Shown: piece after piece, positions 41,849 through 47,977 of the stretch
Layout of the letters: every line of letters begins with the position of its first letter
Numbering within the stretch: the first letter of the stretch is position 1
Source of the DNA: an uncultured Candidatus Binatia bacterium
GTDB taxonomy: Bacteria; Desulfobacterota; Binatia; UBA9968; JAJDTQ01
DNA: 64,000 nt
Assembly (NCBI GenBank): GCA_965215605.1
Contig: OZ244070.1
Span: forward strand, 3,584,001-3,648,000
Reading direction: 5' to 3'
Notes under the pieces: generated by a model
The model's database searches: none
What the model saw: the letters and a program-made list of their open reading frames with translations, nothing else
Told to the model about the DNA's origin: nothing
Program-made: the position numbers and the translations under genes

Positions 41849-42307
41849 ATGTCGATGCCAGATGTGGGGGACAAGGCCCCCGAGTTCAGCCTGCCGGTGT
41901 CCCGGGACGAGAAGGTGTCCCTGAGCGACTACGCGGGCAAGAAGAACGTCGTGTTGGCGTTCTATCCGCTGGATTTCACCGGCGGCTGAAAGCAGGAACT
42001 AACCAACTTCGAGGCTGACAAGGCCAGCTTCGAAGCCAAGGACGCTCAGGTTCTGAGCGTGAGTGTCGATTCGGTGTTCGCCCACAAGGCGTTTGCGGAG
42101 CAGATGGGCGGGATCAGCTTCCCGATGTTGTCGGATTTCTTTCCTCAGGGGGAGGTCTGCAAGCAGTACGACTGCCTGCGTCCCCAGGGCTTTCCCAAGA
42201 GAGCCGTCTTCATTATCGACAAGCAGGGGACCGTGCGGTATGCCAAGCTCTACGAGGGCGGCATCCCGGAGAACCAGGACCTGCTGGCCGAGCTCGACAA
42301 GCTCTAG
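41849..42307 (+). CDS. Peroxiredoxin (AhpE/BCP-like), probable selenoprotein (TGA at 41987-41989 read as Sec)
   Basis: [38 protein letters not shown][TGA][32 protein letters not shown] in one frame; TGA sits in the Cys slot of PxxxTxxC. Confidence 0.88.
42007..42035 (+). promoter_or_regulatory. Putative SECIS-like hairpin
   Basis: CTTCGAGGCTG-acaaggc-CAGCTTCGAAG: 11-bp stem with one G-U, starting 17 nt after the in-frame UGA. Confidence 0.55.
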
Positions 42308-42436
42308 CCTCTCCGCGAGAGAGACGAAGGCTCGAACAGGGGGCGGCGCATGCGTCGTCCCCTGTTTCTGTCTGCGTCGGGGAAACCCGCCTTGAGGGCC
42401 GGCGGCCGTCTCGGGAATAGCCGGTGCGGCCGCGAT

Positions 42437-43498
42437 TCAGAAGGGCAGGGCGTGGACGACGGCAGGAAGCGCCGTGCCCCCGTGCCCGATGGCGAGGGTG
42501 CTGCCCGGCTCGACGAAGTCCCGGTGGACATAGCCGAGGGCGACGGGGCAGCGGCACCGGGGCGAGGCCGCGGCGCTGGTGACCCGGCCGATGCCCCGGT
42601 CGTCGTCGAGCAGCGGGTCGTCCCGGTCGGGCACGGTGCCGCCCTGAACCTTCAGGCCCACCAGCTTCCGGTTCACGCGGCCCCGGGAGTGAATGCGTTC
42701 CACCGTCTCCTGTCCCAGATAGCACCCCTTGGTGAAGCTGACGGCGCCGTCCAGGCCGGTTTCCAGCAGGAGCGTCTCGGCGTCCATGTCGACGCCGTAC
42801 CTGGGGATGCCCGCCTCGATTCTCAAGGTCTCCCGGGCGTCGAGCCCGATCCACGGGACGGCCCGGGCCGGCGCCAGCGCCGCCACGGCCGGCAGGCGGT
42901 CCCGGGAGGCTGCCAGGTCGAAGCCGGGTTCCCCGGTGTGGGTGGCCCGGATGACCCGGATCCGGCCGCCGGGGCCGTCGAACTCCCCGTGGCACAGGTC
43001 ATCGGCGGGCAACGAAGCACTCCCCAGGAGATCGGACAGCGCCGCCTTCGCCCGCGGCCCCTGGATGGATATCATCGCAAGCTCCGCGGAGAGGTCGGTG
43101 ATCTCCACCTCGTCGGCGATCAGGTAGCGGTTCAGGTGCTCCAGCACCCCCGGCGCCAGAGGTTCGCTCACGTCCAGGAGAAACGCGTCGGCGGTGCGGA
43201 AGACTCTCATGTCCGCCAGGATCTTGCCCTGGATGTTCAGCACCGCGGCCGGTGCGCCCTCGCCGTCCCGCAGGGCCTTGACGTCGTTGGACACCATGCC
43301 CTGGAGCCACTCGACGCTGTCCGGCCCGGCCACGGAGAGAAGGGTCCGGTCCGCCAGGTCGAGCCACCCTGCTCCGGAACGCACGGCTTCGTACTCGGCG
43401 CCCGGGTTGCCGAAGCGCGACGGCAGCCTCCACCCCTCGCGCTCGAGAAAGACCGCGCGGTTCTCTTTGTGGAAGTCGTCGAGGGGCGATATCTTCAT
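42437..43498 (-). CDS. ygfZ: Folate-binding YgfZ/GcvT-family protein
   Basis: WLQGMVSND, LRIEAGIP, KGCYLGQE signature. Confidence 0.85.
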   Translation of the reverse strand: MKISPLDDFHKENRAVFLEREGWRLPSRFGNPGAEYEAVRSGAGWLDLADRTLLSVAGPDSVEWLQGMVSNDVKALRDGEGAPAAVLNIQGKILADMRVFRTADAFLLDVSEPLAPGVLEHLNRYLIADEVEITDLSAELAMISIQGPRAKAALSDLLGSASLPADDLCHGEFDGPGGRIRVIRATHTGEPGFDLAASRDRLPAVAALAPARAVPWIGLDARETLRIEAGIPRYGVDMDAETLLLETGLDGAVSFTKGCYLGQETVERIHSRGRVNRKLVGLKVQGGTVPDRDDPLLDDDRGIGRVTSAAASPRCRCPVALGYVHRDFVEPGSTLAIGHGGTALPAVVHALPF

Positions 43499-43564
43499 GG
43501 CGGGATTACAGTAACCGGGTTGGCGCCGCATGGCAATGGCTCCAACACAGGCGGGAGACGAACC

Positions 43565-45440: not shown

Positions 45441-46249
45441 CGAGCTCGCCGCAATATCGCCTGGAGCGCGTCCGCAAGGTGTTCGGGCGTGGGCAGGTGG
45501 CGCTGGAAGGGTTCGACCTGCAAGTGGCCCAGGGCGAGCGGGTGGCCCTCATCGGCCCCAGCGGCGCCGGCAAGACCACGCTCTTCCGCATGCTCAACTG
45601 CACCATCCGTCCCACCGCCGGACGCCTGAGCATCGGCGGGCAGGAGGTGGCGGAGTTGTACGGCCGGCGGCTGCGGGAGATGCGCCGCCGCATCGGCACC
45701 ATCTACCAGCAGCACAACCTGGTGCCGCGGCTCCGGGTGGTCCACAATGTCCTCTCCGGCCGGTTGGGAAGCTGGTCCCTGTTGGGCTCCCTGGCCTCGC
45801 TGGCGCGGCCCGCGGGGCTGGAGACCGCCCACCGGGCCCTGACCGACGTCGGCATCGGCGAGAAGCTCTTCAGCCGCACCGATGAGCTCTCCGGGGGCCA
45901 GCAGCAGCGGGTGGCCATCGCGCGGGTGTTGATGCAGGACCCCGACGTGATCCTGGCCGACGAGCCGGTGTCGTCGGTGGACCCCTCCCTGGCCGAGACC
46001 ATCATCAGGCTTCTCATCGCCATCAGCGACCATACCGGCAAGACGCTGCTGGTCAACCTTCACAGCACCGACCTGGCGCTGTCGTATTTTCCCAGGGTCA
46101 TCGGCATGAAGGCGGGGGTCAAGCTGTTCGATACCGCCGCTGCCCGGGTGACCCCGGAGCTTCTGCAGGAGCTTTACTCCGGCCATGTCCCGGAAAACGG
46201 CGCCGGCGAATCCTCGGGGGAACCGGAGCCGCGCCGCATCGCGGTCTAG
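45437..46249 (+). CDS. PhnC-like ABC ATP-binding protein
   Basis: [36 protein letters not shown] start overlapping the upstream stop. Confidence 0.9.
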
Positions 46250-46259
46250 CCCGGCGTCC

Positions 46260-47105
46260 ATGAGCCTCCCATCCAGGACGCTGGGCTCGCGGTCGATTTT
46301 TCCCTACCTGTTCGGCGGGCTGTTCCTCTTCCTGGTGGCGGATAGTTGGCGCCGCGCCGAGGTAAACCCCGGGATCTTCTTCGACGCCCAGGGCCGGGAG
46401 CACCTGTGGCGGTTCGTCACCGGCATGTACCCGCCGGAGCTCTCTTGGGACTTCCTGGAGCTCATGATCCGGCCCACCATGGAGACCATCCAGATCTCGG
46501 TGATGGGCACCCTCATCGCCGTGCTCATCGGCTTTCCGCTGGGACTGCTGGCCACCAGCACCTTCAGCTTCCAGGGCATCCTCCACGAGTCCGAGTACCG
46601 TGGCAGCGGCGTGAGACACGGCCTCAAGGTCTGTCTCTACGGTCTGGCGCGGGGCCTGTTGAGCCTCTTCCGCTGCATCCCGGAGTTCGTGTGGGCCTTC
46701 ATGTTCGTGCGCGCGGTGGGCTTGGGGCCGTTTCCCGGCGTGCTGGCCATCGGGGTGGCCTACGGCGGGATGCTGGGCAAGGTCTACTCCGAGATATTCG
46801 AGTCGGTGAACACCCGGCCGCTGGAGGCCATCCAGTCTACCGGCGCCGGGCGGCTGCAGATCTTCTTCTACGGCTGGTTCCCGCAGGTGCTGCCCAACAT
46901 CGCCTCGTACACGATGTACCGGTGGGAATGCGCGGTGCGGACCTCGGCCATCCTGGGCCTGGTGGGAGCAGGCGGCATCGGCCAGCAGATCGAGATCTCC
47001 ATCCGGATGTTCAACTTCCACGAGGTCACCACCCTGCTGCTGATCCTGTTCGCGCTGGTGGCGGGGGCGGACTACGTGAGCGCCAGGGTGCGGTCGTTGC
47101 TATGA
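46260..47105 (+). CDS. PhnE-like ABC permease
   Basis: ETIQIS, R.IPE..WA, VGLGPFPGVLA, LGKVYSE, YRWECAVR..ILGLVGAGGIG. Confidence 0.9.
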   Translation: MSLPSRTLGSRSIFPYLFGGLFLFLVADSWRRAEVNPGIFFDAQGREHLWRFVTGMYPPELSWDFLELMIRPTMETIQISVMGTLIAVLIGFPLGLLATSTFSFQGILHESEYRGSGVRHGLKVCLYGLARGLLSLFRCIPEFVWAFMFVRAVGLGPFPGVLAIGVAYGGMLGKVYSEIFESVNTRPLEAIQSTGAGRLQIFFYGWFPQVLPNIASYTMYRWECAVRTSAILGLVGAGGIGQQIEISIRMFNFHEVTTLLLILFALVAGADYVSARVRSLL

Positions 47106-47977
47106 ATCAGGCGGTCACCACCACCGACGAGCTGGCCGCCCTCAAGGCCGGCGCCCGCGAACGGTCGCGATGGTCCACCTGTGTCCTGTTGGGGTTGCTG
47201 GCGGCGCTCTTCGCCTGGAGCTACCAGGGGTCGGAGATCGACCTCGGCATGCTCTTCAGCGCCGACGGCGGCGGCGCCATCGTCGAGTACGTCGAGCGGC
47301 TGTTTCCCCCGGACCTCTCGGGCAAGGTGGTGGCGGATGCCGTGGCCGGCGCCTGGGAGACCCTGGCCATCTCGTTGATCGGCACCCTGCTGTCGGTGCT
47401 CATCGCACTGTCTCTGGCCTTCTTCGGGTCGCGCAACCTCGTGTACGCCGGGCTGCTCTACGAGATGGAACCCCGGCGCCATCGAATGCTGCTGCGGCGC
47501 CTTCCGTACCTCACGGCCAAGGCCATCCTCAACTTCCTGCGCACCATCCCGGAGATGCTGTGGGCGCTGGTGTTCGTGTTCCTGGTAGGGCTCGGCCCCT
47601 TTCCCGGCGTGCTGGCACTGGGAGTGCATACCGGCGGCGTGCTGGGAAAGCTGTTCGCGGAAGTGCTGGAAGACGTGGACCTGCAGCCCGTCGAGTCGCT
47701 GCAGTCCACCGGCGCCGGCAAGATCCAGATCCTCTTCTACGCCATCCTGCCCCAGGTGCTGCCCCAGTTCATCTCCTACACGCTGTACCGCTGGGAGGTG
47801 AACATCCGCGTGGCCGCGGTGCTGGGCTTCGTGGGCGCCGGCGGGCTGGGCCAGCGCATCCACATCGCCTTGAGCCTGTTCCTCGAGCAACAGCTCCTGA
47901 CGCTGCTCCTGGCCCTCTACGTGCTGGTGACGGGGGTGGACTACCTGAGCGCCTACCTGCGGCGCCGGGTGGTGTGA
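47102..47977 (+). CDS. PhnE-like ABC permease (second copy)
   Basis: FPPD, ETLAIS, RTIPE, LGKLFAE, YRWEVNIR..LGFVGAGGLG. Confidence 0.9.
   Translation: MNQAVTTTDELAALKAGARERSRWSTCVLLGLLAALFAWSYQGSEIDLGMLFSADGGGAIVEYVERLFPPDLSGKVVADAVAGAWETLAISLIGTLLSVLIALSLAFFGSRNLVYAGLLYEMEPRRHRMLLRRLPYLTAKAILNFLRTIPEMLWALVFVFLVGLGPFPGVLALGVHTGGVLGKLFAEVLEDVDLQPVESLQSTGAGKIQILFYAILPQVLPQFISYTLYRWEVNIRVAAVLGFVGAGGLGQRIHIALSLFLEQQLLTLLLALYVLVTGVDYLSAYLRRRVV

Follow-up and report, generated by a model that had tools for sequence, protein, structure and literature searches.

A 64-kb stretch of DNA from an uncultured Candidatus Binatia bacterium (contig OZ244070.1; hereafter the window, with positions counted from its first letter) carries a LysR-type regulator gene followed by the four genes of a PhnD/PhnC/PhnE/PhnE-type ATP-binding cassette (ABC) importer, and on balance we read these five genes as a core unit in which a regulator of the LysR_Se type is paired with an importer for an inorganic selenium oxyanion. 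The link of importer and regulator to selenium is well supported by genomic context. Gene content, family membership, the identity of the binding pocket, the neighborhood counts, a conserved element and a domain fusion are observed; we infer what is carried, in which direction regulation works and what the effector is, as well as any part played by a neighboring selenocysteine (Sec) peroxiredoxin and a GcvT-like gene. Both families involved, TIGR04553 for the binding protein and NF040786 for the regulator, are already curated, and the locus adds a member in which LysR_Se and the importer stand together.

In the window (~67% G+C) we chose genes from the G+C content at third codon positions and took their names from NCBIfam and Pfam models, with ~55 open reading frames (ORFs) scanned against family models; scores are given throughout as bits against the curated cut-off. 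The order is Sec-peroxiredoxin (+), GcvT/YgfZ-family gene (−), LysR (+), binding protein, PhnC, PhnE and PhnE (all +). The LysR gene (43565..44512, 315 aa, with the PF00126 HTH_1 and PF03466 LysR_substrate domains) is divergent from the GcvT-like gene, with 33 bp between them, and co-directional with the importer across a 64-bp gap. The importer comprises a periplasmic binding protein with a signal peptide (44577..45440), a PhnC-type ATPase (45437..46249; TIGR02315 250.9 against 266.1, just below the cut-off), and the permeases PhnE 1 (46185 or 46260..47105; TIGR01097 237.4 against 216.7) and PhnE 2 (47102..47977; 257.6 against 216.7). The TTG start of PhnC overlaps the stop of the binding-protein gene (TTGA) and the ATG of PhnE 2 overlaps the stop of PhnE 1 (ATGA), coupling each pair translationally. 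The original prediction, made from the letters of this stretch, had described a Sec-peroxiredoxin, a LysR gene directly preceding a four-gene PhnD/C/E/E importer, and no C-P lyase, phnX or ptxD gene nearby; the gene set was confirmed at these coordinates, the regulator indeed stands directly upstream on the same strand, and C-P lyase (phnG-M), phnX/W, ptxD, pst and phoU found no family match among the ~55 window ORFs scanned.

The binding protein passes TIGR04553, named ‘putative selenate ABC transporter substrate-binding protein’ (337.8 against 250), as do all 15 binding proteins tested from related loci (331–401 bits), and the regulator passes NF040786, named ‘selenium metabolism-associated’ (256.9 against 250), so that the two families which the original prediction had named, a PhnD-like ‘selenate’ family and a selenium-associated LysR clade, both exist. 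A SAIPDE motif occupies residues 31–36 of the binding protein, a type of motif shared with PhnD1 phosphite binders. The nearest solved structures are picocyanobacterial PhnD1 (7S6G/7ZCK, E 4e-61; 5LQ5/5LQ8, E 2e-54), followed by weaker matches to PtxB (5e-38) and E. coli PhnD (1e-24) and then to ArrX, HtxB and AioX; an AlphaFold model (predicted local distance difference test 89.7) gave the same order of matches, with 7S6G at a template modeling score of 0.80/0.84 and 42% identity.

One genome scan with a profile from a 13-sequence alignment returned at least 590 relatives, of which we took the best 80 (labeled L001 onwards) with ~17 kb fetched per locus, giving 81 sequences with the window. 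The closest among these best 80 is L001, from a Candidatus Binatia metagenome-assembled genome (MAG), whose binding protein is 83% identical; the others are mostly from Betaproteobacteria, and also from Aeromonas, Anaeromyxobacter, Rokubacteria and other groups. The importer itself is constant, with binding protein and PhnC found by tblastn with the window proteins in 80 of 80 loci and PhnE in 78, the remaining two being cut by contig ends. When ORFs were clustered at the 73 loci with a called binding-protein gene (7 loci left out), the commonest non-transporter neighbors were SelD, SenB, SenA, EgtD and LysR_Se. Over all 80 loci, tblastn placed selD (19 loci), senA (16), senB (14), egtD (7) or LysR_Se (6) in the flanks of 29 of the 80 loci, mostly 1–4 kb upstream of the importer. 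Two further loci (L034:6508-9576, − and L043:4017-7076, −) carry a formate-dehydrogenase-type molybdoenzyme gene with a TGA in the RV-U-HGP motif, directly upstream and divergent, so that in all 31 of 80 loci have a selenium gene within the DNA fetched around the importer. By our estimate, with ~17 kb covered at each locus and genome sizes of a few Mb, chance would place selD at fewer than one locus. The selD/sen label must change at least seven times on a quick tree (122 rows, one fragment left out), and the association therefore does not reflect one inherited arrangement. The co-occurrence with selenium-utilization genes that the original prediction had proposed to look for is present at the level of neighborhoods.

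At two loci, L007 and L009, LysR_Se, selD, binding protein, PhnC, PhnE and PhnE follow one another on one strand, with regulators scoring 315 and 292 bits against NF040786. A GT4 glycosyltransferase distantly resembling SenB follows the importer at both (L007:13716-14870, L009:9693-10751). Among 93 neighbor proteins (from 100 clusters, of which the other 7 were already named) at the 51 loci without selD, sen, egtD or LysR_Se, we found no phosphorus-catabolic or Pho gene and no recurring theme. A dehydrogenase after the importer in L003 was considered as PtxD and rejected, because phosphoglycerate dehydrogenase was closer (5e-61 against 1.5e-35).

LysR_Se adjoins the importer in the window and in 6 of the 80 related loci. 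The copies beside the importer in L002, L005, L007, L008 and L009 score 264–315 bits against NF040786, and that of L004 is truncated (191 bits). The window regulator does not pass the phosphonate LysR model (141 against 341). In addition, at three loci of the Anaeromyxobacter type (L015:118-1635, +; L017:12596-14677, −; L026:6634-8115, +) PhnC and a LysR effector domain, the latter lacking its helix-turn-helix, form one in-frame fusion; the best LysR family for this domain is again NF040786 (115–137 bits, model positions 90–296). Both Pfam domains are carried by 120 of 120 best database relatives of the fusion protein, including four named Anaeromyxobacter isolates. The fusion links this type of sensor to the importer independently of gene order. 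To our knowledge, a LysR effector domain is not among the regulatory domains described on ABC ATPases. Taking the 31 loci, the LysR_Se genes beside the importer and the ATPase fusion together, the LysR-controlled selenium oxyanion importer of the original prediction is borne out in its selenium context, but not in its cargo, since the pocket of the binding protein is identical to that of phosphite binders, as described below.

Between regulator and importer lies a conserved element (44496-44549, +) containing an ATAG box, a TTGACA hexamer (44520-44525), a TATAG box and a 17-bp imperfect dyad, ATA-N11-TAT; its first box overlaps the LysR stop codon and its end lies 28 nt before the start codon of the binding-protein gene. 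A box upstream of a −35 hexamer with a dyad across the hexamer is a layout typical of LysR-type sites, and by this layout and its position we regard the element as a candidate LysR-type promoter/operator. It precedes the binding-protein gene in 8 of the 81 sequences (the window, L001–L005, L008 and L014), which share the ATAG box, a TTGACA/T hexamer, the TATAG box and a TAT ~11 nt further on, and was not found in L006, L007, L009–L011 or L013. A matrix built from the eight sites, whose own scores therefore carry no meaning, gives one match of at least 10 bits in the whole window, with no second copy at that score before the Sec-peroxiredoxin gene, the LysR/GcvT-like pair or the molybdenum (Mo) hydroxylase genes of the window.

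In the reading we favor, the importer would scavenge an inorganic selenium oxyanion from the periplasm, and the selenium taken up would be used to make selenophosphate and, through it, selenoproteins, the neighboring Sec-peroxiredoxin among them. By analogy with the archaeal orthologue HrsM, LysR_Se would sense the selenium status of the cell and set transcription from 44496-44549. The likeliest cargo would be hydrogen-selenite rather than fully ionized selenate, with phosphite and phosphate expected to cross-bind. This preference comes from the chemistry of the PhnD1 pocket, which is described as holding three oxygens in a trigonal arrangement beneath a capping tyrosine, with an aspartate that accepts a hydrogen bond (PMC10284923). 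Because such an aspartate accepts its hydrogen bond from a protonated oxygen, hydrogen-selenite would fit better than selenate. The same logic underlies the choice of phosphate over sulfate by PstS, where a hydrogen-bond-accepting aspartate disfavors the fully deprotonated tetrahedral anion, and the second pKa of selenite lies near 8. According to a review (PMC9312934), selenite enters by way of phosphate transporters.

Several observations weigh against a selenium importer under LysR_Se control. The window has no match to selD, selA or selB over its 64 kb, 49 of the 80 loci have no selenium gene in their fetched flanks, the deep branches of the quick tree have support of 82–85 only, and the window regulator clears its family cut-off by just 7 bits. 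Where ligands have been measured among the relatives, they are all phosphorus compounds: PhnD1 of Synechococcus MITS9220 is reported to have dissociation constants of 0.67 µM for phosphite, 7.4 µM for phosphate and 47 µM for methylphosphonate, with D11, Y44, T65, S123–S126, H156, N174, D203 and Y204 as ligand residues (PMC10284923). All 11 are identical here (D35, Y68, T89, S141–S144, H173, N191, D220 and Y221), and each is conserved at 76 to 80 of the 80 loci, in part by construction, as S141–S144 (SSTS) and T89 belonged to the fetch patterns. An importer for a phosphorus oxyanion (phosphite, phosphate or methylphosphonate), for which the selenium names would be context annotation that does not hold here, would account for this pocket, since PhnD1 has been solved with all three ligands bound, and for the passing of the phosphate/phosphite/phosphonate model TIGR01098 (226 against 112). 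Nor does TIGR04553 separate the two kinds of protein: a 50%-cluster representative close to 7S6G (406 bits over 272 residues) passes it with 307 bits, so that the clade in which phosphite and phosphate binding has been measured falls within the model. Of 42 full-length representatives, chosen by us among 150 listed, 20 pass it, and the scores form an unbroken range from 187 to 387. Pocket identity and continuous scores together mean that sequence alone cannot name the cargo. On the quick tree, PhnD1-like representatives form their own clade of 8 and the window protein sits in a 10-member clade whose context is LysR_Se. Scoring the binding protein against selenate-type and phosphonate models, as the original prediction had suggested, thus gave a divided answer, in that TIGR04553 was passed and the canonical PhnD model TIGR03431 was not (188.2 against 261.1), but the former takes in the phosphite-binder clade. 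We nevertheless consider a phosphorus cargo unlikely, because no ptxD, C-P lyase, phnX/W, pst or phoU gene occurs among the window ORFs or the 93 neighbors scanned, 31 loci lie beside selenium genes, and the regulator in front belongs to the selenium-associated family rather than to the phosphonate LysR model. In the PhnD1 study itself, a phosphite or phosphonate role is called paradoxical, given that the strains are unable to use either kind of compound and that expression does not track phosphate (PMC10284923). Selenate, the cargo in the NCBIfam name of TIGR04553 and in two papers on selenoneine clusters that repeat it (bioRxiv 10.1101/2022.04.13.486033; PMC13674229), appears less probable again: the name is a ‘hypothetical equivalog’ drawn from context, we found no binding data for the family in the literature, the equivalent of D220 is a hydrogen-bond acceptor in PhnD1, which by the PstS logic would disfavor selenate and sulfate, and sulfate was excluded from the PhnD1 site by its authors (PMC10284923). 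Another three-oxygen oxyanion such as sulfite, arsenite or tellurite, or broad scavenging of such anions, would be compatible with a fold that also senses arsenite and arsenate (AioX, ArrX) and with a pocket described as reading three oxygens and tolerating different fourth groups (PMC10284923), but seems very improbable, because no arsenic, tellurium or sulfite neighbor recurs and each candidate is a single case (an ArsR-rhodanese in L013, TauE in L017 and CysB in L016).

The remaining counterpoints concern regulation. The element is absent from L007 and L009, where LysR_Se, selD and importer are arrayed together, and present in L001, L003 and L014, where the fetched DNA holds no LysR_Se; its tie to LysR_Se is therefore one of position. 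A generic sigma-70 scan did not flag it; that scan gave a single match, within PhnC but on the opposite strand, and shuffled sequence gave the same number. L001 lacks the equivalent of window 43554-44440, nearly the whole LysR gene (L001:9816-10124 against window 43508-44700), and retains a remnant of the last 26 LysR codons (E 0.003), the element and the importer; the gene was probably lost there, and the regulator is, to judge from this case, dispensable for keeping the importer. Regulator and importer might accordingly be neighbors without control: the targets of LysR_Se would then be the GcvT-like gene that diverges from it or genes elsewhere, and the importer would be under some other regulation. 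To this possibility we give appreciable weight while holding it improbable. LysR-type regulators usually act on a divergent gene, and LysR_Se and the GcvT-like gene point away from each other in the window, L002, L004, L005 and L008; the importers that keep the element without the regulator gene fit the same explanation. However, the LysR_Se-selD-importer arrays of L007 and L009 have no GcvT-like gene, and in another lineage the effector domain is fused to the ATPase of the importer itself. We therefore retain control of a selenium importer by LysR_Se as the preferred reading.

The two halves of the unit have known counterparts. Like other TIGR04553 members, for which the ligand name is putative, the window protein passes the family model and belongs to the same four-gene importer, and it shares the association with selenium genes that other authors had seen at selenoneine clusters, where a ‘putative selenate transporter’ was reported near many sen clusters (Kayrouz and Seyedsayamdost, bioRxiv 10.1101/2022.04.13.486033) and ABC_peri_selen is tabulated among co-localized genes (a 2026 paper, PMC13674229); by contrast, its partners here are LysR_Se and the Sec-peroxiredoxin, and those of the others are selD and senABC. 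PhnD1 (7S6G, 7ZCK, 5LQ5, 5LQ8) is the best match in sequence and fold, agrees in all 11 ligand and capping residues, and is likewise encoded away from phosphite and phosphonate catabolic genes (PMC10284923), but differs in an 11-residue insertion, a separate clade and measured ligands that are phosphorus compounds. PtxABC-PtxD and E. coli PhnCDE share the transporter type and fold, but with 30% and 27% identity, respectively, and with ptxD or C-P lyase genes, which are missing here. Oxyanion uptake with a dedicated regulator is known from CysB with the sulfate/thiosulfate ABC importer and from ModE with ModABC, and C-terminal sensing domains occur on the ATPases MetN and ModC. The present unit resembles the CysB and ModE systems in having a regulator that would sense an intracellular product beside a binding-protein-dependent importer, although the binding-protein families are unrelated, and the Anaeromyxobacter-type loci resemble MetN and ModC in bearing a sensing domain on the ATPase. 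A CysB-family regulator (455 against 402 bits) directly follows the importer at one locus, in a betaproteobacterial MAG (L016:13280-14209, −). For LysR_Se, Lin et al. 2015 (PMC5322559) tied the subfamily to SelD-carrying, Sec-decoding organisms and proposed selenophosphate as its effector. HrsM controls Sec/Cys hydrogenase isogenes, whereas the neighbor here is an ABC importer, a kind of target not mentioned in the text of that article (‘ABC’, 0 occurrences).

Our literature search found no experimental work on the TIGR04553 importer family or on such a regulator-transporter unit, in agreement with the original prediction that a regulator-transporter-operator unit of this kind lacked experimental characterization. 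Reviews of 2022, 2024 and 2026 (including PMC9312934 and PMC13188914) state that no dedicated selenium transporter is known, and with no dedicated selenium importer yet proven in any organism, this family offers a concrete candidate that is cheap to test. Crystal-grade protein and binding assays exist for the in-family PhnD1, and neither of the two PhnD1 papers (one being PMC10284923) contains ‘selen’ in its main text. A selD homologue and ybbB were reported in Prochlorococcus and Synechococcus by Romero et al. 2005 (PMC1273633); an NCBIfam model names such selD-homologue fusions ‘not SelD’. If selenite is the cargo, this would explain why picocyanobacteria keep a constitutive ‘phosphonate’ importer that does not serve them for phosphorus. 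We tentatively speculate that TIGR04553 importers are the missing dedicated high-affinity uptake systems for hydrogen-selenite, that the abundant marine picocyanobacterial PhnD1CE, with its paradoxical phosphite binding, is one of them, and that LysR_Se-type control acts at two levels, as a transcription factor here and as an ATPase fusion for direct feedback inhibition in Anaeromyxobacter, a generalization that may well not hold as a whole. If the favored reading is true, the locus provides a regulator, an operator candidate and, in L001, a natural relative without the regulator for studying selenium homeostasis.

The Sec-peroxiredoxin gene (41849..42307, +; 152 aa; AhpC/TSA 133.8 bits) contains a single in-frame TGA (41987-41989) at the peroxidatic cysteine of the P..FT..C motif, which is kept in four of four orthologues (the window, L001, L005 and L008), and a hairpin 20 nt after the TGA (42007..42035, +; −17.8 kcal/mol) is a candidate bacterial selenocysteine insertion sequence. 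The hairpin has a z-score of −2.3, with 3 of 200 shuffles equally good, and recurs in all four orthologues with compensatory change in 2 of 16 pairs, a conservation that partly reflects the protein, as the hairpin sits in coding sequence. With its TGA at the peroxidatic cysteine, kept in the orthologues and followed by a hairpin, the protein conforms to the T..U selenoprotein pattern, and peroxiredoxin selenoproteins with this motif are listed as a family in PMC13188914; it does not pass the PrxU equivalog NF040737 (80.5 against 270). The conserved Sec codon implies Sec decoding. The gene called ygfZ in the original prediction (42437..43531, −; PF01571 158.6 and PF08669 59 bits) passes the YgfZ domain model TIGR03317 (81.1 against 49), but remains below the YgfZ equivalog PRK09559 (75.2 against 219) and the GcvT models (193 against 300 and 158.8 against 235.85), and is better described as a divergent GcvT/YgfZ-family folate-binding protein. 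It occupies the same position in L001, L002, L004, L005 and L008, and the order Nudix, Sec-peroxiredoxin, GcvT-like gene, importer is common to the window, L001, L005 and L008. In four loci (L002:646-951, L004:3649-3957, L005:7247-7612 and L008:7266-7571, all −) the gene after the GcvT-like one encodes a small Rieske-type ferredoxin, NirD/HcaC-like but sub-threshold, and the window has none in that place.

Whether these two genes are part of the module, as the original prediction had it, is a separate matter. Both keep their place in L001 despite the loss of the LysR gene and may therefore be neighbors by descent only; we accordingly regard their membership as weakly supported and that of the window peroxiredoxin in particular as doubtful. 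A second, BCP-like peroxiredoxin occurs at related loci, in a Sec form, whose active-site codon is TGA, immediately ahead of LysR_Se (L002:2395-2778, L004:5245-5604) and in a Cys form just before the binding-protein gene (L003:224-568, L004:9350-9586, the L004 Cys copy appearing interrupted). This suggests a Sec/Cys isoenzyme pair tied to the module, which adds some weight and is reminiscent of the Sec/Cys isoenzyme switching described under HrsM (PMC5322559). Between LysR_Se and the importer, L004 additionally has a fragment resembling OvoA/SenA/EgtB and a second PhnD-like gene, itself a weak match (L004:7387-8142 and 8467-9264).

The original prediction had further proposed that the importer might supply selenium to the Mo hydroxylases of the window, which found no support: the selenium-dependent models remained below cut-off in the window (Se_dep_XDH 390–396 against 830; Se_sel_red 182–327 against 1102), accessory markers of selenium-dependent Mo hydroxylases had no match among the scanned window ORFs, and the conserved element has no copy before these genes. 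One Mo hydroxylase cluster (3455-7198, +), with flavin adenine dinucleotide (FAD) and 2Fe-2S subunits, has its large subunit split between different frames (4611..6164 and 6179..7198) and is followed by an Asp/Glu-racemase-type gene; the second (52892-59431, −), with FAD, 2Fe-2S and 816-aa large subunits, is flanked by a CobW-type GTPase and a hydantoinase/allantoinase-type amidohydrolase. CoxL/CoxM-like genes follow the importer only in L002 (7768-10955, −) and L005 (16054-16911, −), a placement that the window shows for its Mo hydroxylases over a longer distance; these are too few for a link. Downstream of the window importer lies a convergent Zn-dehydrogenase gene (48024..49118) that is sub-threshold for the ‘phosphonate catabolism associated’ alcohol dehydrogenase model (134.5 against 328.1). 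Rfam at gathering scores returned just two RNAs in the window and nothing inside 41849..47977, namely a tRNA-Ser (CGA; 49210-49299, +) and a small signal recognition particle RNA (49553-49650, +), both between the convergent dehydrogenase gene and dnaX. The window also contains three UbiD-family decarboxylase genes, two of them adjacent (11232-14241 and 60812-62332, +).

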